Shown here in pieces: positions 2,901-26,264 of a DNA stretch of 64,000 bases. Location of the stretch: the NCBI GenBank assembly GCA_041650795.1, contig JBAZKK010000003.1, positions 2,386 through 66,385 on the forward strand, written 5' to 3'. The stretch's first letter is position 1. Each line of letters opens with the position of its first letter. A program made the translations under genes and the position numbers. This DNA is from Candidatus Omnitrophota bacterium (GTDB lineage Bacteria; Omnitrophota; Gorgyraeia; Gygaellales; Profunditerraquicolaceae). The notes below the pieces were generated by a model. It saw only the letters and a program-made list of their open reading frames with translations. It did not search any database and was not told the origin of the DNA.

Positions 2901-5900
2901 ATGTATTTTAAGAGACTGGAGCTGGTAGGGTTTAAATCCTTCTGCAACAAAACCACTTTGCAATTTGAGCCTGGGGTTACCGCAGTTGTGGGCCCTAACG
3001 GCTGCGGCAAATGCCTGCATTATGATTCGCTGGTTACCTTAAGCGACGGTTCCCCGGTCAAAATCGGGGAATTAGTGGAGGCGGCTTTAAAAGAGGCGGG
3101 AGCGCCGGAAATATTAAACGACGGCTTGATGACTTCGGATAACCACCGCAATATTAAAATCCTTTCCCTGAACCCGGCTACGCTTAAGATTGAACCCAGG
3201 CCGGTATATGCCTTTATAAAGAGGAAGGCCCCGGATTATCTTCTGGAAGTCAAGACTAAATCCGGAAGAAAAGTCATCACCACCCACTACCATCCTTTTT
3301 TCAGCATTAAAGGCGGCCAGGTGATTGAGCTTAAGGCTGAGGAGCTCAAGGCAGGCACGAGGATTGCCGCTCCGAGGCTCATTAGGCAGCAAGAGGGCAG
3401 CCCTGATTTGGATTTATCGGGAATATTTAAAAAATTCAGCGCAGAGGATAACGTATATATTCCTTATTCAGAGGAATTTTCGGAATTTCTTTCTCAGGTC
3501 ACAGGCAGCAGTATTTCCCCTGCTCAGAGGACGGCAATAAAATCCTGCCGCAGCGGCCAGGCGATGAATATCGCCAACTTCAGCGCGTTGTTGGAGCAAA
3601 AGGGGATTAGAGAGGTCCCCGTTTTTGTAAGACGGCTTAAATCGCATAGCTGCGGGGAAATCAAGCTGCCGCGTAAGATGAGCCCCGCGATAGCCAGATT
3701 TCTCGGTTACCTTATTTCTGAAGGCAGGTCTACCAAAGAGAATCAAGTTTGGTTTGTGAATGGTGATAAGGATATCGTTGCGGATTTTACGGCCTGTGCC
3801 TACAGCGCATTTGAAGTAAAAGCCAAGGTTTTTAATTATAAACCTTGCGTCCAGGATGTCTTGATTTTCTCCAGCGCCTTGTGCGAATTCCTCCAGAAGG
3901 CCTTTATTTTCAATATCTCGGCCCCGTCAAGAGAAAAGGCGGTTCCGCCGCAGATATTCAGGTCTGATGAAAATATTATAAGAGAGTTTTTATCAACTCT
4001 CTTTGAAGGCGACGGCTATCTCTGTACCGATAAACAGAATAACAGCAAGAAGGCTTATTTTGAATATACCACCGCCTCCGGGGCATTGGCTTGCGGCGTC
4101 AGGAGCCTGTTGCTGCGCTTAGGGGTGCAGCCGGTAATCAGAAAAAAGCTGAAGGCAGCCACTAATACCAAGGAGAAAAACAAAAGGGTATATTATTCTG
4201 TTTATGTTTACGGGTTAGCTAATGCCAAACGCCTGGCTGAACTATTGCATTTTGTGGGCAAGAAATCCGCAAAACTCCAGGAGATTAAAAGACTGAAGTC
4301 TAAAAATAACCCCAATTTAGATTTAATCCCCGAGGTCAACGCCGTATTTAAAAAATTGACGCAACTGGCTGGCATCAATGTCAAAAAACTCAGGAAGACT
4401 TGCCCGAAGTTAGCTTCTTACTATGAGAACAGGTGTTTGCCCAGCCGCCAGGGGTTATTGGAGGCGCTGAGTATTGTTTCGGAGCACGGCAGGATTACCG
4501 GCTTAGCCGCAGCTTTATACCATTGCCTGAAAACCCTGGCCGTTTCGGATATTTACTGGGATGAAGTAACTAGTATTAAAAAAGTTTATTCAGAGGAATG
4601 GGTTTATGACCTTTCGGTATTAGAAACGCACAATTTTATTGCCGATGATATTATCGTTCATAACAGCAATATCTTTGATTCCATCCGCTGGGTATTGGGG
4701 GAGCAGTCTGTAAAGTCCCTGCGCGGCTCGGACATGCAGGATGTTATCTTTAACGGCACTGATAAAAAGGAGCCGTTAAGCATGGCCGAGGTGAGCGTTA
4801 CCTTTGATAATAAAACCAGGTTTTTCCCAGTTGACCATGACGAGATAATGATTTCCCGGCGCCTTTTCCGCTCCGGAGAAAGCGAGTACCTCCTGAACAA
4901 AACCCAGGTGCGCCTTAAGGACATCTCTGATTTATTGTTGGGTACCGGTATCGGAGCCGAGAGTTATTCCCTGGTGCCGCAGGGCAGGATAGATATGATT
5001 TTGAGTTCGCGGCCGGAGGACAGGCGCCTGGTATTTGACGAAGCCGCAGGCATAACTAAATATAAATCCCAGAAACGCGAGGCAATGCGTAAATTGGAAG
5101 AGACGGAGCAGAACCTCCTGCGCGTAAATGACATCATTACCGAGGTCAAGCGCCAGATCGGCTCCCTGGAGCGCCAGGCAAATAAAGCCAGGCGTTATAA
5201 GGAATTATTTGAGGAATTGAAAAACAAGGAGGTCAGGCTTGCCGTTTTGCAAAAGATAAGTTTCCTTAAGGACAGGGATGAGACCACGGCAGAGTTAAGC
5301 AGACTGCAGGAAAAAGAGTCCGAGGTCCTGAACGCCATCCAGGAGCAGGAGGTCAAGATTGCCGACCAGAAACAGGAAGCCAAGGCCCTTGAGGACGCTA
5401 TCAACAATATCAAGGGCAGGATCCTTAACCTCGATAACGGCATATCCCGCAGCCGCGAGCACATTACCATTTCCCGCGAGAGGATCAGCGAGCTTGAAGC
5501 CGGAAAGAAACGTATCGATGAGCAGATAGAACAGACCGCGGCGCGCATCAATGCCGATAAAGAAAAACTTGATGCCGTCAAGAAGGAATACAACGGGATA
5601 CAGAAGGAAATCGAGGAAAAGGGTGTTCTTCTGAAGGAAAAGGAAGGCGAGCTTAACAGCCTAGCAGTTGTTATAAAGCTGTCTTTGGATAATATTGCGG
5701 CAGCAAAGAAGAACCTTCTGGAACTGGCAGCCAAGGTCAGCAGCGCCAAGAATGAAGTTGCCGATTTTGCTGCCAAGGAACAGGTTTATCTGGCGCGCCA
5801 GAAAAGGCTGGAGGTAGAAAAAGCCAAGGTTAATGAAGAGAAGGCCGATGCGGAGTTAGCCTTCTCCACTATATCCCGGGAATTGTCAGGATTGCAGAGT

Positions 5901-7793
5901 AATTTTGCCGAGCTCGGCCTTAAGCTTAACGCAGCAAAGGAAGAATTGGGACAGGAAAAAATATCCCTTGAGCAGATCAATGCCTGCATTGCGGACCTTG
6001 AAAAGCAGAGGCTGGCGATGCAGTCCCAGAAAGAATTTCTGGAGGAGCTTAAATCCAAATACGATGATATAGGAGAATCCATGAGCGCCCTGCTCTATCT
6101 GGATAAGATGCCGGCAGAGAAGAGCTCGGGGATACTGATTAAGGTTAAAGAGTACCTGGAGCTTGCCGATGGCGATGGCGGGACAGCCGGCCATGCCAAT
6201 GTCAAGATATCCGGCGAGGCCAAGCCTATGGACCTGGACACCCAGAAGATTGGCGAACGCATTGCGCAGGTCGATATCAAGATAGCCAGCCTCAAAGAGA
6301 ATAAGGCTCATAAGCAGACACATATTGCGGAGCTCAAAAATAACATAGGGGCCCTGGAAGGTAATCTGCGTAGCGAGGAGATGGTTCTTGTTAATAAGCG
6401 TGCCCAACAGCAAACCGCAGAGGACGAGGTAAATAAAATCAAGAGCGAGGAAGAGATCATTGCGATAGAGCTTTCTGATATAACGGGAGCGCTATCCGGC
6501 CTCCAGGATGAACTGAACATCCGCAAAGCCTCCTTGGCTGCCTTAGAGGATGAGGAGAGGAGCGCGGAGGATTTGATTTCCGGAGAGCAGAATCGGATTA
6601 ATTCCAGCAATCAACTTAAAGAAGGCGTAATCGTAGCGATTACGCAGACCAGGGCAGAATTGGAAGCCCTTAATAAGCGCGTTAATTCCGACCAGGCAAC
6701 TATTGCGATACTGGAAGATACCTTCCGCCAGGACACGGAGGCGCTCGCCAGCCTTAATGAGCAAAAAGAGGCGGCTTTCGCTAAAGAGGCATCCCTGGAT
6801 GCCCAGATAAAAGATTTGGAAGAGGCGATTTTGAAGTCCGGGGAGGAGATCGAGAGTCAGAGGGCGGTCCTTAAGGATACCGAGGCCAGATTCGTAGCGG
6901 TCCTGGACGGCACTAGCGATATTACCCTGAAGATCGAGGCGGATAAGAAGGAAATAGATAGTATCAAAAGCAGGGTATATGAGTTTCAGATGCGTTCCAA
7001 GGAGGCGGAGTATAAGTACGGCGCCGTCAAGGAGAGGATATCGCAGGGATATAAGGTTGACCTGGATGCCGTTAGCGATGTTGTCTGTGAAGGCGATGAA
7101 GGTTCCTTAAGTGCAGAGATACAGGGGATGAAGGGAAAACTGGAGTCTTACGGTACGGTAAACCTGGTCGCCATTGAGGAATACGACGAGCTTAAGAAAC
7201 GTTATGATTTTCTCACCCAGCAGCAGGCGGATCTGTTGAATGCCAAGCAGTCACTGCATGAGGCAATACTAAAGCTTAACAAGACCACTAAGCACATGTT
7301 TCTGGAGACCTTCCAGAAGGTGGCTGCCGAGTTCCGTAATTACTTCCGGCTGCTCTTTAACGGGGGAGACGCCCAGGTCTTCTTGGTGGACGAACAGGAC
7401 CCCTTGGAGTGCGGCATTGAGATTATCTGCCGGCCGCCCGGGAAGAAACTTCAGAACGTGCTTTTGCTTTCGGGAGGCGAGAAATCCATGGCTGCCATAG
7501 CCCTGATTTTCGCCATATTCAAGATCAAACCGGCTCCGTTCTGCGTATTGGATGAGATTGATGCGGCTTTGGATGAAGCCAATGTTGACAGGTTCGGCAG
7601 GATGCTGCAGGAATTTACGAACGGTTCGCAATTCATCGTGATTACCCATAACAAAAAGACCATTGCCAACGCCGACGTGATGTATGGTATCACGATGGAG
7701 GAGTCTGGGGTATCCAAGATTATTTCAGTGAAGTTTTCGCAGGGTAAACCTTCTGTGCAACCCGAGGGAGTTCCGGTAGCAGAACCGGCTTAA
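2901..7793 (+). CDS. smc: chromosome segregation ATPase SMC, intein-containing precursor (1630 aa; 1079 aa after splicing)
   Basis: N-head MYFKRLELVGFKSF...GPNGCGK|intein|SNIFDSIRWVLGEQSVKSLRG. Long heptad-rich arms. C-head has signature LSGGEKSMAAIALIFAIF, Walker B FCVLDEIDAALD, and QFIVITHNK. Confidence 0.9.
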   Translation: MYFKRLELVGFKSFCNKTTLQFEPGVTAVVGPNGCGKCLHYDSLVTLSDGSPVKIGELVEAALKEAGAPEILNDGLMTSDNHRNIKILSLNPATLKIEPRPVYAFIKRKAPDYLLEVKTKSGRKVITTHYHPFFSIKGGQVIELKAEELKAGTRIAAPRLIRQQEGSPDLDLSGIFKKFSAEDNVYIPYSEEFSEFLSQVTGSSISPAQRTAIKSCRSGQAMNIANFSALLEQKGIREVPVFVRRLKSHSCGEIKLPRKMSPAIARFLGYLISEGRSTKENQVWFVNGDKDIVADFTACAYSAFEVKAKVFNYKPCVQDVLIFSSALCEFLQKAFIFNISAPSREKAVPPQIFRSDENIIREFLSTLFEGDGYLCTDKQNNSKKAYFEYTTASGALACGVRSLLLRLGVQPVIRKKLKAATNTKEKNKRVYYSVYVYGLANAKRLAELLHFVGKKSAKLQEIKRLKSKNNPNLDLIPEVNAVFKKLTQLAGINVKKLRKTCPKLASYYENRCLPSRQGLLEALSIVSEHGRITGLAAALYHCLKTLAVSDIYWDEVTSIKKVYSEEWVYDLSVLETHNFIADDIIVHNSNIFDSIRWVLGEQSVKSLRGSDMQDVIFNGTDKKEPLSMAEVSVTFDNKTRFFPVDHDEIMISRRLFRSGESEYLLNKTQVRLKDISDLLLGTGIGAESYSLVPQGRIDMILSSRPEDRRLVFDEAAGITKYKSQKREAMRKLEETEQNLLRVNDIITEVKRQIGSLERQANKARRYKELFEELKNKEVRLAVLQKISFLKDRDETTAELSRLQEKESEVLNAIQEQEVKIADQKQEAKALEDAINNIKGRILNLDNGISRSREHITISRERISELEAGKKRIDEQIEQTAARINADKEKLDAVKKEYNGIQKEIEEKGVLLKEKEGELNSLAVVIKLSLDNIAAAKKNLLELAAKVSSAKNEVADFAAKEQVYLARQKRLEVEKAKVNEEKADAELAFSTISRELSGLQSNFAELGLKLNAAKEELGQEKISLEQINACIADLEKQRLAMQSQKEFLEELKSKYDDIGESMSALLYLDKMPAEKSSGILIKVKEYLELADGDGGTAGHANVKISGEAKPMDLDTQKIGERIAQVDIKIASLKENKAHKQTHIAELKNNIGALEGNLRSEEMVLVNKRAQQQTAEDEVNKIKSEEEIIAIELSDITGALSGLQDELNIRKASLAALEDEERSAEDLISGEQNRINSSNQLKEGVIVAITQTRAELEALNKRVNSDQATIAILEDTFRQDTEALASLNEQKEAAFAKEASLDAQIKDLEEAILKSGEEIESQRAVLKDTEARFVAVLDGTSDITLKIEADKKEIDSIKSRVYEFQMRSKEAEYKYGAVKERISQGYKVDLDAVSDVVCEGDEGSLSAEIQGMKGKLESYGTVNLVAIEEYDELKKRYDFLTQQQADLLNAKQSLHEAILKLNKTTKHMFLETFQKVAAEFRNYFRLLFNGGDAQVFLVDEQDPLECGIEIICRPPGKKLQNVLLLSGGEKSMAAIALIFAIFKIKPAPFCVLDEIDAALDEANVDRFGRMLQEFTNGSQFIVITHNKKTIANADVMYGITMEESGVSKIISVKFSQGKPSVQPEGVPVAEPA
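3012..4664 (+). mobile_element. class-1 intein (551 aa) with LAGLIDADG homing endonuclease, inserted in the SMC Walker A P-loop
   Basis: Starts with Cys (CLHYDSLVTLSDGS). Block B is TTHYH (TxxH). Block F/G is VYDLSVLETHNFIADDIIVHN, followed by Ser+1. In-frame length is 1653 nt. Excision restores GPNGCGKSNIFDSIRW. Confidence 0.9.
3699..4016 (+). other. double-motif LAGLIDADG endonuclease core within the intein
   Basis: Motif 1 FLGYLISEG (3699..3725) and motif 2 FLSTLFEGDG (3987..4016) are about 96 aa apart, as in monomeric LAGLIDADG enzymes. Confidence 0.8.
6075..6260 (+). other. non-coiled mid-segment of SMC (mini-hinge, ~60 aa) in place of the canonical hinge domain
   Basis: ESMSALLYLDKMPAEKSSGILIKVKEYLELADGDGGTAGHANVKISGEAKPMDLDTQKIGERI is the only break between the two ~300-340 aa heptad arms. 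No GRATFLPL-type or repeated G-rich hinge motifs are visible. Confidence 0.6.
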
Positions 7794-8968
7794 GAAATGT
7801 AACAGCAGGTTTTATTTTTTCCCTGATCCTTGGCCTGATAAAGCGCCTGGTCGGACAGAAAGATTAATTCCGCAGCGCTGGAAGCGTTATCCGGGAACGA
7901 GGCCAAGCCGATGCTTACGGTAAGTTTTTTATTCGGAAGTATCTCTTCGTGCAGAAAGGAATGCTTTTCGATATCCTGCCTTAGGCGTTCCGCAATCAGA
8001 TAAACCTCATTTCTCTGGGACTCCGGCACTATAATCGCAAATTCCTCTCCGCCGTAACGGCAGACGAAGTCCATTTTACGGGAATGGCTTTTAAGCAGGC
8101 CGGCTAATTCTTTGAGGATTTTGTCTCCCGCCTGATGCCCCAGCGTGTCGTTATATATTTTAAAGTCGTCAATATCAATCATTATCAGGCTCAGGCGTCC
8201 CCGGGTAGCCTTGGCTTTTTCCAGCTCTTCCTGCAGAAGATAACGGAAGTAACCGTGGTTCCAGAGCTCGGTGAGGGAGTCTGAGTGGGCACGGACCACT
8301 GTTTTTTCATAAAGATGGGAATTATCGATGGCCAACCCGGCTTGGTTAGCCAGCATTATCAGCATGCGCATATCGTTTTTGTCAATGGGCTTTTTGGTGA
8401 TGAAATTATCGGCGATGATGATGCCGTTTACCCTGTCTTTGGCTTTTAATGGCACGACTGCCAGCTCGTCGGTTTTCAATAATTTTATTACGGTATCCGA
8501 TTGGTAGGAGACGATGCTTTCTTTTGTCAGGTGCAAGGGCATTCCTTCCAGGACAGTCAGCGCCAGCAATCCCCCCCTGGTATCATGCAGGGGAATCTTG
8601 AGAAGTTTAATCTCCTGGTTGAAGGTGGATTCCTGGGGGGAGGATTTTTGGTATGCGCTGATGAGGTCATCCATATCCATTTTGTGATGCTCTATGTGTT
8701 TCCAAATGTGGTTAGCGTCTTCACCGTTGTCCGGGCCGATACCCATCTTGCCTTCGATGATATTTTCCTTGTCATTTACCAAAAAGAGCATGGCGCGGTT
8801 GAACCCGAGTCCGGTGTGCGCAGTTACGCCTGTCAGAATGATGTATAGTATCTCATCCAGCTTTAAGGTAGTGCGCATAGCATTGGAAATCTCATAGAGT
8901 ATGCTAAGCTCGCGCTGGGCGCGTTCTAATTCGTTCTGGTATTCTTCCGGTTTTTTGGCGCCTTCCAT
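7790..8968 (-). CDS. GAF-domain diguanylate cyclase (GGDEF)
   Basis: C-terminal GGDEF domain has active site RYGGEEF and an RxxD I-site (RKMD) 5 residues upstream. The N-terminal region is GAF-like (LDEILYIILTGV...GFNRAMLFLV). Its stop overlaps the smc stop (shared TTAA at 7790..7793). Confidence 0.9.
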   Translation of the reverse strand: MEGAKKPEEYQNELERAQRELSILYEISNAMRTTLKLDEILYIILTGVTAHTGLGFNRAMLFLVNDKENIIEGKMGIGPDNGEDANHIWKHIEHHKMDMDDLISAYQKSSPQESTFNQEIKLLKIPLHDTRGGLLALTVLEGMPLHLTKESIVSYQSDTVIKLLKTDELAVVPLKAKDRVNGIIIADNFITKKPIDKNDMRMLIMLANQAGLAIDNSHLYEKTVVRAHSDSLTELWNHGYFRYLLQEELEKAKATRGRLSLIMIDIDDFKIYNDTLGHQAGDKILKELAGLLKSHSRKMDFVCRYGGEEFAIIVPESQRNEVYLIAERLRQDIEKHSFLHEEILPNKKLTVSIGLASFPDNASSAAELIFLSDQALYQAKDQGKNKTCCYIS

Positions 8969-8977
8969 AATGCTTAG

Positions 8978-9006
8978 AATTTAACATATTTTAAGCCTCC
9001 TGTCAA
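8978..9006 (-). promoter_or_regulatory. candidate promoter of the GGDEF gene (TTGACA-N17-TAAATT on the minus strand)
   Basis: Minus-strand TTGACA = 9006..9001, 17-nt spacer, TAAATT = 8983..8978. Only 9 nt separate it from the ATG (8968) and there is no SD, implying a near-leaderless mRNA. Confidence 0.35.
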
Positions 9007-9010
9007 CCTA

Positions 9011-9066
9011 CAGAAACACTTTCCAATCCATAGCAGAAACGTTTTCCGAGCCAAACCGGACAGTGT
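9011..9066. repeat. REP-type left end (modules 1, 2 and left arm of module 3)
   Basis: cagaaacactttccaatc (9011..9028) is 18/18 identical to 2460..2477. cagaaacgttttcc (9034..9047) is the exact reverse complement of 2547..2560. cggacagtgt lies at 9057..9066. Confidence 0.75.
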
Positions 9067-9135
9067 TATTTGATAAAAATTTTTGTTAGGTATATATTGT
9101 TTGCGCGTCTATTAAAGCAAAAGGGGGTGATTTTT

Positions 9136-9621
9136 ATGTCAGCGCGCTCAAAGATATTATTGAAAAACGGATGTTACCATCTAACTGCCAGAGGCAATCA
9201 AAAACAACGAATTTTCTTAGATGATCAAGACTACGCGGCATTCGTCGGGCGTTTAAAAAAATACAAAAGAAGATATGGTTTAAAGCTTTACGGTTTTTGC
9301 CTGATGCCGAACCATTTACATCTCATCGCTGAATTTGACGAACCGCAATGGTTATCTAAATTCATGCAGGTGATTTTACGGTCTTACACGAGTTATTTCA
9401 ACAAAAAATATAATAAAGTTGGCCATTTGTGGCAAGGCAGATTCAACAGCAGACTTATTACAAGGGATGCTTATTTGCTGGATTGTTTAAATTATGTCGA
9501 ATTCAATCCGGTAAGAGCTGGTATAGCCAGGAGCGCGGGAGATTATAAGTGGAGTAGCTATAAAGAACGAGCGCTCGAAAAAACAGCGGATTTTCTGTTA
9601 ATTGACTCTCTTGAACTTTAA
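9136..9621 (+). CDS. REP-associated tyrosine transposase-like protein (Y1_Tnp / IS200-like HUH family)
   Basis: HUH motif in LMPNHLHLIAE. Motif GHLWQGRFNSRLI. Catalytic-Tyr motif LNYVEFNPVRAGIA...YKWSSY. RBS aaggggg precedes the ATG at 9136; the ORF-track start at 9070 is probably too far upstream. Confidence 0.85.
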   Translation: MSARSKILLKNGCYHLTARGNQKQRIFLDDQDYAAFVGRLKKYKRRYGLKLYGFCLMPNHLHLIAEFDEPQWLSKFMQVILRSYTSYFNKKYNKVGHLWQGRFNSRLITRDAYLLDCLNYVEFNPVRAGIARSAGDYKWSSYKERALEKTADFLLIDSLEL

Positions 9622-9628
9622 TAATTAA

Positions 9629-9686
9629 AGACACTTTCCCGATTGCGTTGGAAAACGTTTCCCGATTGTATTGGAAAGTGTTTCTG
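9629..9686. repeat. REP-type right end (degenerate module 1 forward, module 2 reverse, module 1 reverse)
   Basis: ggaaaacgtttc (9650..9661) equals 2547..2558. ggaaagtgtttctg (9673..9686) is 14/14 identical to 2570..2583. There is an internal direct repeat tttcccgattg x2 (9635..9645, 9658..9668). Confidence 0.75.
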
Positions 9687-9698
9687 ATTATTAAATAA

Positions 9699-9727
9699 TT
9701 GACAGGGGCAAGGGGGTGGGATATAAT
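9699..9727 (+). promoter_or_regulatory. sigma70-type consensus promoter (TTGACA-N17-TATAAT) upstream of recA
   Basis: TTGACA at 9699..9704, 17-nt G-rich spacer ggggcaagggggtggga, TATAAT at 9722..9727. It lies 12 nt from the RAYT right end. Confidence 0.6.
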
Positions 9728-9786
9728 AAAAGACTCTATTTGAACGAGTTTCGGCTAAAATTCAAATTTGCGGACCGGAGGTAATT

Positions 9787-10812
9787 ATGTCAACCGTTGA
9801 GAAGAAAAAAGAGGATGCAAAGAATATTTCAGATAGGCATAAGGCGCTTGAATTGGCTTTGATGCAGATTGAAAAGCAGTTCGGCAAGGGCTCGATTATG
9901 AAGCTGGGGGGGGATGTCAAGGTCAACGTAGAGGCAATCCCTACTGGCGCCTTGACCCTGGATTGGGCGTTGGGGGTAGGAGGACTGCCTCGCGGAAGGG
10001 TAATCGAGGTTTTCGGGCCGGAAGCTTCCGGAAAAACCACCCTGACTTTGACCGTAATACGCGAAATCCAGAAAAAAGGCGGGGTAGCAGCTTTTATTGA
10101 TGCGGAGCATGCCTTTGACTCTACCTATGCCAAGATTATAGGCGTCAATCTCGAAGACCTTTTAATATCCCAGCCGGATACCGGCGAGCAGGCCCTGGAG
10201 ATTGCGGAAACCCTGGTGCGCTCCAACGCCGTGGACGTAGTAGTAATTGATTCCGTGGCTGCCTTGACCCCGCGCGCCGAGATCGAGGGGGAAATGGGTG
10301 ATTCGCACGTGGGCTTGCAGGCGCGCCTGATGTCGCAGGCACTGCGTAAACTTACCGCTGCCATAAGCAAGTCGCGCACCTGCGTGATTTTTATCAATCA
10401 GATACGCGAGAAGATCGGGGTGATGTTTGGTTCTCCCGAAACTACCCCCGGCGGCCGTGCGTTAAAATTCTACTCTTCAGTGCGCCTGGACGTAAGAAAG
10501 ATAGCTACCCTGAAGGCCGCGGATATGGTCATCGGCAACAGGGTCAGGGTCCGGGTAGTCAAGAACAAGGTCGCCCCGCCTTTCAAGGAGGGTGAGTTTG
10601 AAATACTGCATAACGAAGGCATTTCCAAGACCGGAAGCATAATCGACGCCGGTATAAACCTCAGTGTAATCGAAAAATCCGGCACTTGGCTTTCTTACGC
10701 CACCACTAAGCTTGGGCAGGGCCGCGACGCCGCCATCAAAACCCTGAAAGAGCAGCCTAAGCTGCAGGATGAGATTGAAAAGGAAATCCGGAAAAAAATT
10801 ACCTTAGGTTAA
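9787..10812 (+). CDS. recA: recombinase RecA
   Basis: [14 protein letters not shown], Walker [36 protein letters not shown]. Confidence 0.97.
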
Positions 10813-10830
10813 CAGGAGGCAAGAGGCAAA

Positions 10831-12249
10831 ATGAGAGTTAGGGGTATACTGCTGATCATGGCCTTAGCAGCAGGCGTAAGCGCAGGAGTATGGGAAACAG
10901 GAAGGGCTGCGCAGCCAGAAACCCTGCCCCAGGCAAGCGGCATTGAGGATGCAGTGGTAAACGTTGCCGCCAAGGTAGGCAAGGCAGTGGTTTCCATCAG
11001 CACCGAACATAAGATCCCTTCCGATAAAAATAAAAGGGTGTATTTTAATTCCCCGTTCGGAGATGAGGAATTTTTCCGCCGTTTCTTCGATGAATTCTTC
11101 GGCGATATGCCTGAGCGTGATTACCGCCAGGTGGCGCTGGGCTCCGGCGTAATCGTTGACCCGCAGGGTTACATCCTTACCAATGAGCACGTAGTCGAGG
11201 ATGCCGATAAGATTACGGTCACTCTTCCGGATGGAAGGGAATTCAAGGGAGAGGTGAAAGGCCGGGATCCCCGTTCAGATCTTGCTATTATAAAAATAGA
11301 TGCCAATAACCTTTCGGTGGTGCAGTTAGGGGAATCGGAGAGCCTTAAGATCGGACAGTGGGTCCTGGCAATCGGAAATCCTTTTGGCTTTGCTATGCAG
11401 AATCCGGAGCCTACGGTTACGGTCGGGGTAGTCAGCGCCCTGCACCGTTCGCTCGGTAGGAGCATCTCGCGGGAGCGCGATTACAATGATTTAATCCAGA
11501 CTGACGCTGCAATTAACCCCGGCAATTCCGGAGGCCCCCTGGTGAATCTCAAGGGAGAGGTGGTCGGAATTAATGCCGCTATATTCTCCACCAACGGAGG
11601 ATACCAGGGGATAGGTTTTGCCATCCCCATCAATACTGCCAGGAGGATAATCTCGCGGCTTATTGAAGGCAAAAAGATTGTTTACGGCTGGCTTGGTATA
11701 ACGGTGCAGGATATGTCAGTGGATTTAGCAAAACACCTGGGCCTTAAGGATAAAAACGGAGCCTTAATAGCAACCGTGCTTCCAGCAGGTCCGGCGGAAA
11801 AAGCAGGCATGAAAGAAGGGGATATCATCCGTAAATTCGATAACACTGATGTCAATAACGTAAGGGAGCTTTTGAGCCTTGTCGGCAGGGCCGAGCCGGG
11901 ACGCAAGGTAAAGGCAACACTGCTGCGCAATAATAAGGAGCTAACCTTGAACGTCGAGGTGGGAGAGAGGCCGGATAACCTTGAGGAATCGGATGCCGGC
12001 GCCACCCGGAACAAAAGCAAAAAGTGGCGCGGGCTTGAGGTTTCCGAGTCGCAGAAAGGGCTGGTTATTTCTGAGATTGAGCAGGGCAGCGCCGCGGATG
12101 ATGCGGGTCTGGTAGCCGGAGAGGTGATCCAGGAAATTGATAAGCAGCCCGTTAAAACCCTTTCGGATTACCAGAAGGCCATTAAAGGGGTCAAGGGAGA
12201 TTGCCTTGTTAAGACCTCGCGCGGCTATTTCCTTATCAAGGGTGACTGA
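10831..12249 (+). CDS. htrA: periplasmic serine endoprotease HtrA/DegP family (trypsin domain + 2 PDZ)
   Basis: Signal-like N-terminus. Catalytic triad context TNEHVV / DLAIIK / GNSGGPL. Two PDZ-like segments follow. Confidence 0.9.
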   Translation: MRVRGILLIMALAAGVSAGVWETGRAAQPETLPQASGIEDAVVNVAAKVGKAVVSISTEHKIPSDKNKRVYFNSPFGDEEFFRRFFDEFFGDMPERDYRQVALGSGVIVDPQGYILTNEHVVEDADKITVTLPDGREFKGEVKGRDPRSDLAIIKIDANNLSVVQLGESESLKIGQWVLAIGNPFGFAMQNPEPTVTVGVVSALHRSLGRSISRERDYNDLIQTDAAINPGNSGGPLVNLKGEVVGINAAIFSTNGGYQGIGFAIPINTARRIISRLIEGKKIVYGWLGITVQDMSVDLAKHLGLKDKNGALIATVLPAGPAEKAGMKEGDIIRKFDNTDVNNVRELLSLVGRAEPGRKVKATLLRNNKELTLNVEVGERPDNLEESDAGATRNKSKKWRGLEVSESQKGLVISEIEQGSAADDAGLVAGEVIQEIDKQPVKTLSDYQKAIKGVKGDCLVKTSRGYFLIKGD

Positions 12250-19737: not shown

Positions 19738-20066
19738 AAAAAGGGTTCGATCCTAAAGGCTTGAAATATGACCGCCGCGGCTTAATACCGGCCATTATCC
19801 AGGATTACAACAGCGGCGAGGTTTTGATGCTTGCCTATATGAATAAGGAGTCTTTGAGGCGCACGCTTAAACTCGGCAAGACCTGTTTTTGGTCGCGTTC
19901 ACGCAAGGAATACTGGGTAAAGGGAGCTACCTCGGGTTGCTTCCAATACGTCAAGACGGCATGCTATGACTGCGATATGGATGCCTTATTATTCAAGGTG
20001 CGCCAGGTAGGCGCGGCCTGTCATACTGGAAACCGCAGTTGTTTTTACCGTAAAATAAAGAAATAG
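19734..20066 (+). CDS. hisI: phosphoribosyl-AMP cyclohydrolase (HisI domain only, no HisE fusion)
   Basis: [49 protein letters not shown]. 110 aa. ATGA overlap with hisF. Confidence 0.9.
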
Positions 20067-20093
20067 TCACTAATTGCTACGCAGGAGCCAGCG

Positions 20094-21578
20094 GTGTATT
20101 ATCCGGATTTAAATGAGTTCTTAAAGCTCTCCGCGAAAGGAAACCTTATCCCTGTATACAAGGAGATAAATGCCGACCTGGATACGCCGGTATCGGCATA
20201 TCTTAAGATAGGTAAGGACGATTATGCGTTCCTCCTGGAATCGGTAGTGGGCCAGGAGAAGATTGCGCGCTATTCCTTCCTGGGGACAAAACCCGCCGTT
20301 ATCTTTAAGAGTAAAGGCAGGGATATTGAGATTACCGATACCCATCACGGCAAGGTGCGCCGTTTCAGGGCCCAGGGAAACCCGCTGGAAGAGATACGAA
20401 AAATCATGCGGGAATTTAAGCCCGTTCCGGTAAAGGGGCTGCCGCGTTTTTTTGGGGGCTTGGTAGGTTATATCGGATACGATGTGGTGCGGTTCTTTGA
20501 GAAGCTGCCGGATAAAAACAAGGATGACCTTAAGCTTCCCGACGCCGTGCTCCTTTTGACCGATAGCATCCTGGCCTTTGACCATATCAATCACACCATC
20601 AAGATTATTTATAACGTCGTTTTGCCTCCAGATAAGAAGTTTACCCGTAAAGATAAAATCGAATTTTACCGAAGGGCCATAAGCAGGATTGAAGCTATCC
20701 ACAGGCAATTGCGCGGCGGGATTCCAGGCGAGAGAGGAAACGCCGGAAGGGGCAGCCGGGTGCGGATGACTTCAAATTTCACAAAGGAAGGTTTCTGCCG
20801 CATGGTCAGCCGCGCCAAAAAATATATCCGCAGGGGCGACATCATTCAGGTAGTTTTGTCGCAGCGCTTCAGGTTTAAAATCAAAAAGCCGTGGTTTGAG
20901 ATATATCGTAGCCTAAGGAGCATTAATCCCTCGCCTTACATGTTCTTCTTGAAGTTGAAGGATTTTGCGCTTATCGGTTCATCCCCTGAGATACTGGTGC
21001 GTTCCCAGGACGGCCAGGTTCAGGCCCGCCCCATTGCCGGTACGCGGCCGCGCGGGAAAAACGAGGAAGAGGATTTGAGATTCGAGCGCGAGCTCTTAAA
21101 GGACGCCAAGGAGAGGGCCGAGCATATCATGCTGGTGGACCTGGGCAGGAATGACCTTGGCCGTGTCTGCCGGACAGGCAAAATCGAGGTTGACGAATTA
21201 ATGGGCGTGGAGAGATATTCCCACGTGATGCATCTGGTAACCAACGTAAAAGGGACGCTTGAGCGACGCTACGATGCGTGCGATGTGCTGCGGGCATGTT
21301 TTCCGGCCGGTACAGTCAGCGGAAGCCCAAAGGTCCGCGCGATGGAAATCATCGAGGAGTTGGAGGATGTCCGGCGCGGCCCCTACGCCGGCTGCGTGGC
21401 ATATTTTAGTTTTTCCGGGAATATGGATACCTGCATTACTTTAAGGACAATCCTTGCACGCGGCAAGACAGCCTATATCCAGGCAGGTGCCGGGATAGTG
21501 GCTGATTCTGTCCCGGCTAAGGAATACCGCGAAACCGTAAACAAGGCAAAGGCCCTAATAGAGGCACTGACAAAGTAA
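20094..21578 (+). CDS. trpE: anthranilate synthase component I
   Basis: GTG start. Feedback-site motif FLLESVVGQEKIARYSF. Chorismate-binding core PSPYMFF, GSSPE, RPIAGTRPRG, HIMLVDLGRNDLGRV, GPYAGCVAYF. Confidence 0.88.
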   Translation: MYYPDLNEFLKLSAKGNLIPVYKEINADLDTPVSAYLKIGKDDYAFLLESVVGQEKIARYSFLGTKPAVIFKSKGRDIEITDTHHGKVRRFRAQGNPLEEIRKIMREFKPVPVKGLPRFFGGLVGYIGYDVVRFFEKLPDKNKDDLKLPDAVLLLTDSILAFDHINHTIKIIYNVVLPPDKKFTRKDKIEFYRRAISRIEAIHRQLRGGIPGERGNAGRGSRVRMTSNFTKEGFCRMVSRAKKYIRRGDIIQVVLSQRFRFKIKKPWFEIYRSLRSINPSPYMFFLKLKDFALIGSSPEILVRSQDGQVQARPIAGTRPRGKNEEEDLRFERELLKDAKERAEHIMLVDLGRNDLGRVCRTGKIEVDELMGVERYSHVMHLVTNVKGTLERRYDACDVLRACFPAGTVSGSPKVRAMEIIEELEDVRRGPYAGCVAYFSFSGNMDTCITLRTILARGKTAYIQAGAGIVADSVPAKEYRETVNKAKALIEALTK

Positions 21579-24362: not shown

Positions 24363-26264
24363 ATGTTTAAATCCCTCGAGGTTTATATCGGCCAGGTTAT
24401 TGCGCTGGATAGACTGCATGTGCAGTTAGCCGGTTTCGGATATAAACGCCAGGACAATGTTCTTGAGGAGGGGGATTTTGCCAGGCGCGGAAACCTGATA
24501 GACATCTTTCCTTTTACCTTTGAACTACCCATCCGCATAGCTCTCGACATAAATACCGTTAAATCCATAAATAGTTTTGACCCTGCCAGCGGCGCCCCTC
24601 TATGGGGGCATAAGATGGTGATTATACTGCCTATAAAGAACCGTCGTCTTTCCCGGACGGTTTCCTTTAACGAAGAGCTGCCCCTGGAGAATTTCCTCGA
24701 CCTGGATGTCGGAGATTACGTAGTGCATACCGAGCACGGTATCGGCAGGTTCAGGGGGCTCCAGAAGCTCAAGCTCAAGGATAAATACCTTGACCACCTG
24801 GTGATAGAATATGACCGCCAGGAGAAACTGTACGTACCGGTGGGGGAAATGCATCTTATCCAGAAATATGTCGCCTTTCAGGCGAGGAGGCCAAAACTTT
24901 ATCGCCTTGGAAGCAAGGAATGGCAGCGGACCAAGGAAAGGTCAAGAAAAGGCATCCAGAAGCTGGCCTGGGAATTGCTTTCCCTGGAGGCTATGCGCAT
25001 GAGCATCGGAGGGTTCGCTTATTCCAAGGATAAGGAGTGGCAGGGGCTCTTTGAGGCAACCTTCCCTTATAAAGAAACCCCGGACCAGGCCAAGGCCACT
25101 CAAGAGGTAAAGCGCGATATGGAGATGCCGAGGCCCATGGACCGCTTGCTCTGCGGTGACGTTGGTTACGGCAAGACGGAAGTAGCGATGCGGGCGGCGT
25201 TCAAGGCTACCATGGATAATAAACAAGTGGCTTTTCTTGTGCCTACTACCATCCTGGCAGAGCAGCATTATCAGAACTTCATCGGCCGTTTGGAAAAATT
25301 CCCCATAAATGTCCAGATGCTTTCGCGTTTCAATACCGCTTCCGAACAGGAGGTTATCATTAAAGGCATTGCGGACGGCACGGTGGATGTCGTGGTCGGA
25401 ACGCACCGCTTGCTGTCCGGAGATGTAGTATTTAAAAACATGGGGTTATTGATTATTGATGAAGAGCAGCGTTTCGGGGTCAAGGCCAAGGAGCAATTGA
25501 AGAAGATGCGGCTTACCTGCGATGTCCTGACATTGACTGCTACCCCCATACCGCGCACCCTTTATATGAGTCTGATGGGCGCAAAGGATCTTTCCGTCAT
25601 CAATACACCTCCCCAAAATAGGTTGCCGATTAAGACCGTTGTGGTAGAATATGACCTGGCTTTGATCCGCCAGGCGATCCTCAGGGAGACAAGGCGTAAA
25701 GGACAGGTTTACCTGGTGCATAACCGTATCGAGGATATCTGTGAGCTCAAAGACAGCGTTATGCGCGGTCTTCCCGGCAGTATCAGGTTTGGCGTGGCCC
25801 ATGGGCAGATGCTGCCGCGGATGCTGGAAAAGGTGATGTCGGATTTCCTGAAAGGCGGCATAGACGTCCTAGCCTCTACTATGATTATCGAATCCGGCAT
25901 AGATATACCCAACGTAAACACTATTATTATCAACAATGCCCATACCTTCGGTCTTTCGGACCTGCATCAGCTACGTGGAAGGGTAGGCAGGTTTGACCGG
26001 CCGGCCTATGCCTATTTATTGATTCCGCCCGAAGAGGCGCTTAATAAGGATGCCCGCAAGAGACTGGATGCCATAGAGGAACATTCTGAGCTGGGGGCCG
26101 GTTTTAAAATCGCAATGGAGGACCTGGAGATCCGCGGAGCAGGTAATCTCTTGGGGATCCAGCAGCACGGTTTTATCAGCGCCCTGGGGTTTGACCTTTA
26201 CTGCAGGCTCTTGAGGGAGTCTATCACAAATTTTAGAAAGGTGCTGGAAAATGAAAAGAAATAG
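24363..26264 (+). CDS. mfd: transcription-repair coupling factor Mfd, compact 633-aa form
   Basis: UvrB-like segment RRGNLIDIFPFTFELPIRIALDINTVKSINSFDP. RNAP-interaction (CarD/TRCF) motif VGDYVVHTEHGIGRF. SF2 translocase motifs GDVGYGKTEVA, IIDEEQRFG, TLTATPIPRTL, QLRGRVGR. Ends after GFDLYCRLL, with no TRCF/D7 domain. Confidence 0.85.
   Translation: MFKSLEVYIGQVIALDRLHVQLAGFGYKRQDNVLEEGDFARRGNLIDIFPFTFELPIRIALDINTVKSINSFDPASGAPLWGHKMVIILPIKNRRLSRTVSFNEELPLENFLDLDVGDYVVHTEHGIGRFRGLQKLKLKDKYLDHLVIEYDRQEKLYVPVGEMHLIQKYVAFQARRPKLYRLGSKEWQRTKERSRKGIQKLAWELLSLEAMRMSIGGFAYSKDKEWQGLFEATFPYKETPDQAKATQEVKRDMEMPRPMDRLLCGDVGYGKTEVAMRAAFKATMDNKQVAFLVPTTILAEQHYQNFIGRLEKFPINVQMLSRFNTASEQEVIIKGIADGTVDVVVGTHRLLSGDVVFKNMGLLIIDEEQRFGVKAKEQLKKMRLTCDVLTLTATPIPRTLYMSLMGAKDLSVINTPPQNRLPIKTVVVEYDLALIRQAILRETRRKGQVYLVHNRIEDICELKDSVMRGLPGSIRFGVAHGQMLPRMLEKVMSDFLKGGIDVLASTMIIESGIDIPNVNTIIINNAHTFGLSDLHQLRGRVGRFDRPAYAYLLIPPEEALNKDARKRLDAIEEHSELGAGFKIAMEDLEIRGAGNLLGIQQHGFISALGFDLYCRLLRESITNFRKVLENEKK

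Follow-up and report, generated by a model that had tools for sequence, protein, structure and literature searches.

An Omnitrophota Smc orthologue with its hinge reduced to a conserved element of about 65 residues, a putative minimal dimerisation module

Our analysis of a 64,000-nucleotide stretch of DNA from a Candidatus Omnitrophota bacterium (assembly GCA_041650795.1, contig JBAZKK010000003.1, positions 2,386 to 66,385 of the forward strand; hereafter the window) revealed an smc gene whose product retains the ATPase heads and the full-length coiled-coil arms of a bacterial Smc and carries, in place of the hinge, a conserved element of only about 65 residues, which we call the mini-hinge. 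The SMC hinge is a doughnut-shaped domain of about 180 residues that is treated as defining and universal and for which functions in dimerising the protein, in binding DNA and in letting it enter have been proposed; B. subtilis Smc and the T. maritima hinge (PDB 1GXL) serve as canonical references. By descent, the protein described here is an orthologue of Smc; its architecture, with the hinge reduced, is a derived one. We favour a reading in which the hinge of an Omnitrophota Smc collapsed in place and in which the remaining element most likely acts as a minimal, constitutive dimerisation module, and we put the probability of this reading at roughly 0.6.

An intein interrupts the Walker A motif of the gene product, with matches to Intein_splicing (5.5e-28) and LAGLIDADG_3 (7.7e-14). 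Its removal in silico joins GPNGCGK to SNIFDS and leaves a protein of 1079 residues, the length put forward in the initial annotation of this DNA; the junction and the length are identical in the intein-free orthologues P0001 (92% identity) and P0002 (73%). The heads, which had been called canonical, are indeed so, with SMC_N covering residues 3–1054 (8.6e-76), additional matches to further P-loop families, and the motifs GPNGCGKS (Walker A), LSGGEKS (signature) and VLDEIDAALD (Walker B) read from the translation. Against TIGR02168 (SMC_prok_B) the spliced protein scores 881.6 bits, compared with a cut-off of 567.35, in two stretches that skip the hinge, the first aligning query residues 2–518 with positions 1–518 of the 1181 in the profile. 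A canonical Omnitrophota Smc taken as control (P0365) aligns with the same profile in a single stretch, 1–1180, at 1045 bits. The SMC_hinge family (PF06470) was absent from the Pfam matches even at E<=10, both for the whole protein and for its central 108 residues alone, and no CxxC occurs anywhere in the protein, the mini-hinge itself containing no cysteine. The earlier impression, gained by eye, that the protein has neither a canonical hinge nor a zinc hook of the Rad50/SbcC type is thereby borne out.

Where in the protein does the missing length lie? With the same alignment anchors applied to 147 relatives of the short type and 95 of canonical length, the hinge segment has a median length of 71 residues in the mini-hinge type versus 188 in the canonical relatives, whereas the arms are of the same length in both (N-terminal arm, 333 versus 333 residues; C-terminal arm, 319 versus 321). 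Only the hinge differs between mini-hinge and canonical Smc, by about 117 residues. The initial annotation had placed two arms on either side of a short segment, and the arm lengths of 333 and 319 residues, as in canonical relatives, agree with this; together with a predicted local distance difference test score (pLDDT) above 90 next to the hinge, they match two helices of about 330 residues each, as needed for an antiparallel arm of about 50 nm. The 63-residue segment that had been quoted corresponds to spliced residues 508–570, at window positions 6075..6263, and its end, given as 6260, fell 3 nucleotides short. A HMMER search of 1.84 billion cluster representatives separated mini-hinge and canonical proteins cleanly: matches in a single stretch are of the mini-hinge type, with lengths of 1058–1129 residues and 35–57% identity, and matches in two stretches carry a canonical hinge, with lengths of 1183–1225 residues, 38–45% identity and a break at query positions ~514–540.

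The mini-hinge is far from a chance feature: it is common to, and strongly conserved in, all 120 of the best matches to the spliced Smc among 5.8 billion proteins, and PF06470 was found in none of these 120. They share 57–92% identity with the query and are 1061–1121 residues long, except for one of 1630 residues that contains an intein, and those that are named belong to Candidatus Omnitrophota or Omnitrophica. Scanning a single genome for each GTDB species with patterns derived from the element returned 171 species-representative genomes that encode it; at least that many related species share the reduced hinge. The best 80 of these 171 supplied a set of loci (L001–L080), in which complete smc open reading frames span 1059–1153 residues and four contain an intein. 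Nearly all of the 80 are labelled Candidatus Omnitrophota. A few records, among them L002, L005, L007, L009 and L015, say 'uncultured Planctomycetales' or 'Patescibacteria group' despite carrying the same syntenic block; synteny and Smc type suggest that these loci belong with Omnitrophota and that the labels reflect crude taxonomy. In the NCBI records examined, the product name is 'AAA family ATPase' for the mini-hinge type and 'chromosome segregation protein SMC' for proteins with a canonical hinge, even though the mini-hinge type exceeds the TIGR02168 cut-off.

The core of the element, GESMNAVIYLDKLP...SGLVIKIK...FKLSGEAKPIDLD, is conserved almost to the level of the heads. The family consensus reads GESMNAVIYLDKLPxEKxSGLVIKIKD, followed by a variable loop and FKLSGEAKPIDLDTQKI with its invariant G, E, A, K and P; in the numbering of alignment A1, N66, A67, Y70, L71, K73 and P75 are nearly invariant and D72 is invariant. 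Column conservation reaches 0.89 and 0.91 in the two head halves and 0.67 and 0.63 in the arms. The element itself scores 0.74 in its N-terminal part, 0.46 in the loop and 0.86 in its C-terminal part; depending on the orthologue, the loop is nearly absent or runs to several tens of residues. The conservation of the C-terminal part, set against that of the arms, points to strong purifying selection on the element. These data also bear on another account of the short hinge, an artefact of assembly or binning, or a decaying pseudogene. Such an account draws on the fact that the data consist of metagenome assemblies and nothing more, yet many independent studies have yielded the same architecture, in 171 species-level genomes altogether, with intact reading frames, preserved arm lengths and head-like conservation of the element; we therefore reject it, its probability being negligible. 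A deletion in this assembly that relatives do not share, which the initial annotation had named as a possible undoing of its own claim, is ruled out on the same grounds, the short hinge being present in the 120 best homologues and the 171 genomes; the other such outcome that it had named, a significant SMC_hinge match over the segment, did not appear either.

Could the mini-hinge protein be a specialised paralogue that works alongside a canonical Smc of the same genome, as the initial annotation had offered as one option? Both hinge types exist inside Omnitrophota, since the PF06470-bearing relatives of P0148, one of the closest proteins with a canonical hinge, are named 'chromosome segregation protein SMC [Candidatus Omnitrophota]', including that of Ca. 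Gorgyraea atricola, and the presence of both within one candidate phylum speaks for a paralogue. Gene order speaks against it. Mini-hinge loci share a recurrent order, acad-etfB-etfA-(HTH_17)-smc-GAF/GGDEF(convergent)-recA-(htrA)-recX-alaS, and canonical smc genes sit between the same acad-etfB-etfA block and a convergent GAF-GGDEF gene in Ca. Gorgyraea atricola (L083) and at the loci of P0378 (L088) and P0323 (L089), with partly shared flanks at those of P0292 (L087, GGDEF side) and P0148 (L081, acad/etf side). Two forms at the same locus in different genomes are the pattern of orthologues and, because the gene order is shared, we regard mini-hinge and canonical Smc as alternative states of one locus. 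Weaker support comes from the whole-genome shotgun prefixes of three metagenome-assembled genomes with a canonical hinge (JAVCCW, JAZDOX and JBDRJN), all of which are absent from the 80 mini-hinge loci, and the window holds no second open reading frame of SMC size besides rpoB and rpoC. Based on synteny and on these few prefixes, the mini-hinge Smc is probably not a paralogue, and we consider an arrangement with a canonical partner in the same genome quite unlikely; the mini-hinge protein would then be the only Smc in the cell.

The positional argument extends to a second group of hinge-less proteins in the phylum (P0280, P0281 and P0283–P0286; locus L084, 1636-4824), which are 1050–1063 residues long, lack PF06470, and are 63–71% identical to the canonical P0148 over a best local alignment covering 43–50% of P0148. 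What remains between their arms, KHEGFSDSAKAFLSDxDIxxKPWYxxIxxLxSDL-NACIEN, is unlike the GEAKP type and amounts to a connector of about 35 residues (KPWYxxIxxLxSDL-NACIEN) in which no obvious interaction module is present. The flanks of the P0280 gene are exactly those of its canonical sister, with three small open reading frames upstream and ribBA-ribH-nusB-PHP-ribD-ribE downstream, a further finding at odds with paralogy. In a neighbour-joining tree of heads and arms, which is only indicative, the P0280 group nests inside the canonical clade of P0148, P0279 and P0282, and the GEAKP-type clade is separate. The loss in the P0280 group is independent, and the hinge has been reduced at least twice in Omnitrophota. 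A distant mini-hinge group (P0196 type, 35–37% identity) has the same strand-loop-strand layout, and at least P0196 itself lies in the context acad-etfB-etfA-smc-GGDEF. One additional short-hinge Smc of 1082 residues (P0197, locus L086 of GCA_053997015.1) stands apart in its surroundings, being preceded by flagellar genes and followed by a UPF0102 gene; its possible origin in another lineage hints at hinge reduction beyond the syntenic Omnitrophota group.

What might the element look like? Two AlphaFold2 monomer models were compared, one from 57 sequences with long arms (m675c95655a6b) and one from a more diverse alignment of 83 sequences with short arms (m12a1e759e384). In the former, the arm helices have pLDDT values above 90 and the element, at 46–71, contains four short strands, including E81-84 and E88-90 in the region of strand 1. 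In the latter, the element, at 61–77, forms one long beta-hairpin in which spliced residues 526–536 pair with 550–559 (E44-54 and E68-77), with the variable loop at its tip. We take a beta-hairpin between the arm helices to be predicted with moderate confidence. The ESMNAVIYLDKLP segment is unstructured in both models; because this hydrophobic, invariant segment lies unpaired next to the hairpin, it is a candidate strand for pairing with a partner subunit.

Known folds offered little guidance. A search of PDB sequences with a profile of the central region gave only coiled-coil noise (e.g., ribosomal protein L29) and none for a hinge. Foldseek searches of the PDB returned nothing below E=3.4 for the short-arm model and, for the long-arm model, nothing more specific than helical hairpins (V-ATPase stalk subunits, prefoldin and Vipp1, at E>=0.025), and neither search returned a structure of an SMC hinge, a MukB hinge or a Rad50 hook. 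Profile alignment with hhalign of the mini-hinge and the canonical Omnitrophota hinges extended over no more than 38 columns at the N-terminal end, in register, and placed YEDIgESxNAvI...SGLV against fEGFsxGvKalL...xGixG (pairwise P 0.0086, probability 4.7%). The transition from coil to hinge and the first strand may thus be a leftover of the old hinge. The resemblance of SGILIKVKEY to the first hinge strand, remarked on in the initial annotation, finds weak support in this alignment. A second correspondence, between FKLSGEAKPIDLD and the canonical '...AKLVTxDGE' strand, was hinted at by MAFFT and was rejected, since it found no support from hhalign, including a run with a low maximum-accuracy (MAC) threshold and alternative alignments.

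In conjunction with the ScpB gene of a related genome, these analyses lead us to propose the following model. The canonical hinge would have collapsed in place to the element of about 65 residues, leaving heads and arms untouched. The element would consist of the extended segment ESMNAVIYLDKLP, a beta-hairpin (SGLVIKIK...loop...FKLSGEAKPIDLD) protruding from the end of the antiparallel arm, and a variable tip loop. Its most likely task would be the single function of the hinge that B. subtilis genetics shows cannot be spared, to keep two Smc arms permanently joined at their tips, away from the heads, probably by beta-sheet pairing between the two subunits, and DNA loading and translocation would rely on the heads, the arms and ScpAB, as in other bacteria. 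At least one mini-hinge genome keeps a gene for a Smc-ScpAB partner, since the L010 contig carries both a mini-hinge smc gene (8642-11881; 869 bits, TIGR02168) and ScpB (19905-20519; TIGR00281, 151 bits versus a cut-off of 89). Because the heads, the arm length and at least ScpB are kept while the hinge is repeatedly lost, the most economical view is that constitutive dimerisation at the arm tip is all that the element provides. Homodimerisation through the element would be in line with engineered B. subtilis Smc, where growth stays normal when the hinge is exchanged for the unrelated zinc hook of Rad50 and where the length and integrity of the arms are critical (PMC5344682). The initial annotation had offered, as the alternative to a paralogue, that the arms would need a different mode of dimerisation or DNA gating; a different mode of dimerisation is the option that we favour.

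Two other roles for the element deserve consideration. It could be a mere cap that closes the arm hairpin, with the Smc monomeric or joined only by contacts between arms, by head engagement and by the kleisin. The P0280-type connector, so short and devoid of a recognisable module, suggests that a real hinge is dispensable for an Omnitrophota Smc, and the monomer models require no partner. A simple cap would nevertheless have no need of the near-invariant GEAKP and NAVIYLDK motifs at head-like conservation, and the fully hydrophobic AVIYL lacks a pairing partner in the monomer models, as interface segments typically do. To our knowledge, moreover, all characterised SMC-family proteins dimerise at the arm tip (Smc, MukB and Rad50). 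We therefore regard a cap as doubtful. It is also conceivable that the hairpin serves as a docking site for a factor that supplies DNA binding or bridging, such as the HTH_17 protein, an excisionase/MerR-like protein of 80 residues whose co-transcribed gene lies 12 nucleotides upstream of smc in the window. An HTH_17 gene is found upstream of smc, within about 400 nucleotides, in 45 of 76 mini-hinge loci, and none was seen directly upstream of the canonical smc genes in the five loci examined (L081, L083, L087–L089). The acidic element could, in addition, bind a basic partner. Many mini-hinge loci, on the other hand, lack the HTH gene, having in its place a gene for a protein of about 120 residues (PilZ-like by eye) or nothing, and HTH_17 proteins are common stand-alone regulators, which makes a docking function very unlikely. 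The HTH gene, which the initial annotation had set beside smc as part of one locus, is thus a frequent upstream neighbour and not a universal one.

Several observations weigh against a dimerisation module, and we consider them together. The element reaches a pLDDT of only 46–77 across the monomer models, which assign no structure to its conserved ESMNAVIYLDK stretch. Detectable homology with the hinge of canonical Smc is marginal and confined to the N-terminal third. The DNA-binding function of the hinge is left unaccounted for: with 7 K+R versus 12 D+E the element is net acidic, and for this reason it is probably no substitute for the basic face with which the hinge binds DNA. Neither scpA nor scpB occurs within the 64-kb window, ScpB being known only from a related genome, and a motif search for F.GPLDLL of ScpA across 85 loci and the window found nothing, with ScpB seen once. 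Finally, the genome could conceivably encode a second Smc elsewhere, although this is unlikely.

How does this protein relate to known systems? It resembles bacterial Smc of the Smc-ScpAB complex in its ABC-type heads, its arms of 333 and about 320 residues, its equivalog score, its locus and the occurrence of ScpB in one related genome (L010). It differs in that the two-lobed doughnut of about 180 residues (PF06470), with its glycine motifs at the dimer interface, is gone and a hairpin element of about 65 residues stands in its place. Like Rad50/SbcC, MukB/MksB/JetC and RecN, it has long coiled coils, antiparallel ones, whose tip is a small dimerisation element other than the doughnut, a putative one in the present case. 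Unlike Rad50/SbcC, it contains no CxxC, scores only 37–58 bits against Rad50 models with cut-offs of 700–1087, and is encoded without an adjacent nuclease gene. RecN is a protein of about 550 residues with short arms, in contrast to the 1079 residues and Smc-length arms found here, and its model TIGR00634 gives 45.8 bits against a cut-off of 407.85. No MukB model was among the best 25 of 36 NCBIfam matches listed, and no mukEF, mksEF or jetAB genes were noticed by eye among the open reading frames of the window, the neighbours of smc being the HTH_17 and GAF-GGDEF genes. Prefoldin subunits, which oligomerise via hairpins, likewise consist of two antiparallel helices joined by a beta-hairpin; the matches remain below threshold (Pfam Prefoldin_2, E=0.18; Foldseek 2zdi, E=0.04-0.6), and the likeness is one of analogy, not homology.

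The closest engineered counterpart is B. subtilis Smc(Zh), which combines natural arms with a small, unrelated tip module, the zinc hook of P. furiosus Rad50 (Buermann et al. 2017, PMC5344682). Smc(Zh) is functional in vivo, so that the hinge fold is dispensable if the arms are joined (PMC5344682). Unlike this artificial chimera, which forms its dimer through zinc and CxxC, the Omnitrophota element occurs in nature, contains no cysteine and would dimerise by other means. The closest natural counterpart is an abundant clade of 'hinge-less' SMC proteins in ocean metagenomes, reported in 2025 and assigned to Actinomycetes, which was argued not to be paralogous because it does not co-occur with a regular SMC (PMC12153180). 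Those proteins likewise have SMC heads and full arms, and neither a hinge domain nor a CxxC hook; unlike them, the present proteins belong to Omnitrophota and, judging from isolate names, come from an apparently mainly non-marine setting.

The coordinates of the smc gene, its parts and its immediate neighbours are collected in Table 1. The tail-to-tail pairing of smc with the GAF-GGDEF gene was observed at nearly all mini-hinge loci and at four of the five canonical loci examined, which makes this gene an unusually stable neighbour of smc with no obvious functional link to it. Between the GGDEF gene and recA lies a gene for an IS200-like Y1 transposase (9070..9621; Y1_Tnp, 1.4e-12). As it is present in only about five related loci, the transposase gene appears to be a recent insertion into the conserved block. 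Elsewhere in the window, an Mfd-like open reading frame of 633 residues (24363..26264) seems, by eye, to lack the N-terminal UvrB-homology region of the typical Mfd of about 1100 residues.

Each of the three Smc types of the phylum has sporadic inteins, apparently at the same Walker A site, the identity of the site in other proteins being inferred from length and alignment offsets. They were noted in mini-hinge Smc proteins (P0003, P0122 and loci L002, L008, L046 and L076), in the second hinge-less type (P0287) and in Smc proteins with a canonical hinge (P0154, P0180, P0184, P0288 and P0349). This scatter suggests a mobile intein that homes to the conserved P-loop site of Smc.

Table 1. Features of the smc locus, in window coordinates; residue numbers refer to the spliced protein
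Feature	Position	Strand	Remarks
HTH_17 gene (excisionase/MerR-like), 80 residues	2646..2888	+	12 nucleotides upstream of smc; HTH_17, 4.6e-19
smc gene	2901..7793	+	precursor of 1630 residues; Smc of 1079 residues once the intein is spliced out (in silico)
N-terminal ATPase head half, residues 1-37	2901..3011	+	
Intein, 551 residues, with LAGLIDADG homing-endonuclease domain	3012..4664	+	in Walker A after GPNGCGK; CLHYD...IIVHN
N-terminal ATPase head half, remainder, residues 38-165	4665..5048	+	SMC_N and AAA_23 matches; column conservation 0.89
N-terminal coiled-coil arm helix, residues 166-502	5049..6059	+	collinear with the TIGR02168 profile up to 518; canonical length (333 residues counted between anchors)
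Mini-hinge, residues 503-566, YDDIGESMSALLYLDKMPAEKSSGILIKVKEYLELADGDGGTAGHANVKISGEAKPMDLDTQKI	6060..6251	+	about 64 residues; no PF06470, conserved in the family, no PDB match
Extended hydrophobic segment ESMSALLYLDKMP, family consensus ESMNAVIYLDKLP	6075..6113	+	conserved; coil in both AlphaFold2 models
Predicted hairpin beta-strand 1, residues 526-536, GILIKVKEYLE	6129..6161	+	AlphaFold2 strand; aligns with the first-strand region of the canonical hinge (hhalign; MAFFT versus P0148)
Predicted hairpin tip loop, variable, residues 537-549	6162..6200	+	column conservation 0.46; pLDDT <50 in the long-arm AlphaFold2 model
Predicted hairpin beta-strand 2, residues 550-559, VKISGEAKPM	6201..6230	+	invariant GEAKP motif; AlphaFold2 strand; column conservation 0.86
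C-terminal coiled-coil arm helix, residues 567-893	6252..7232	+	canonical length (319 residues counted between anchors); pLDDT >90 beside the hinge
C-terminal ATPase head half and stop codon	7233..7793	+	signature LSGGEK, Walker B VLDEIDAALD; column conservation 0.91
GAF-GGDEF diguanylate cyclase gene, convergent	7790..8968	-	overlaps the smc stop by 4 nucleotides; GGDEF, 1.8e-46; GAF, 7.2e-07

What is the relevance of a Smc with so small a hinge? Hinge-less SMC proteins as a general phenomenon are already on record (PMC12153180), and our literature search found no paper linking Omnitrophota or Omnitrophica with the SMC hinge. Set beside the Actinomycetes clade by its published description, the phylum is new, and so are the features documented here for Omnitrophota: the conserved mini-hinge motif with its hairpin model, the positional orthology, the independent second loss and the linked ScpB. 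We give about even odds to the broader statement that much of Omnitrophota runs its chromosome with a Smc bearing a minimal, previously undescribed beta-hairpin dimerisation module, following at least two independent losses of the hinge at the same locus.

If our reading is correct, the doughnut hinge, together with hinge-mediated DNA binding and gating, would be dispensable in nature for Smc-ScpAB function, and the Omnitrophota element would be the smallest natural connector of SMC arm tips. Nature would repeatedly tolerate the loss of a hallmark domain of SMC proteins, and to the engineering in B. subtilis, which pointed to dimerisation as the only function that counts, the locus described here would add a natural, repeated confirmation on the scale of a phylum. 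Surveys of SMC proteins by hinge homology have a blind spot for the mini-hinge type (e.g., the methods of PMC5344682), and surveys by product name would score organisms that carry it as Smc-less. Engineered mini-SMCs could employ the element of about 65 residues as a compact module for dimerisation, and sister lineages with and without a hinge, sharing identical arms and the same genomic context, offer an ideal comparative system for the function of the hinge.

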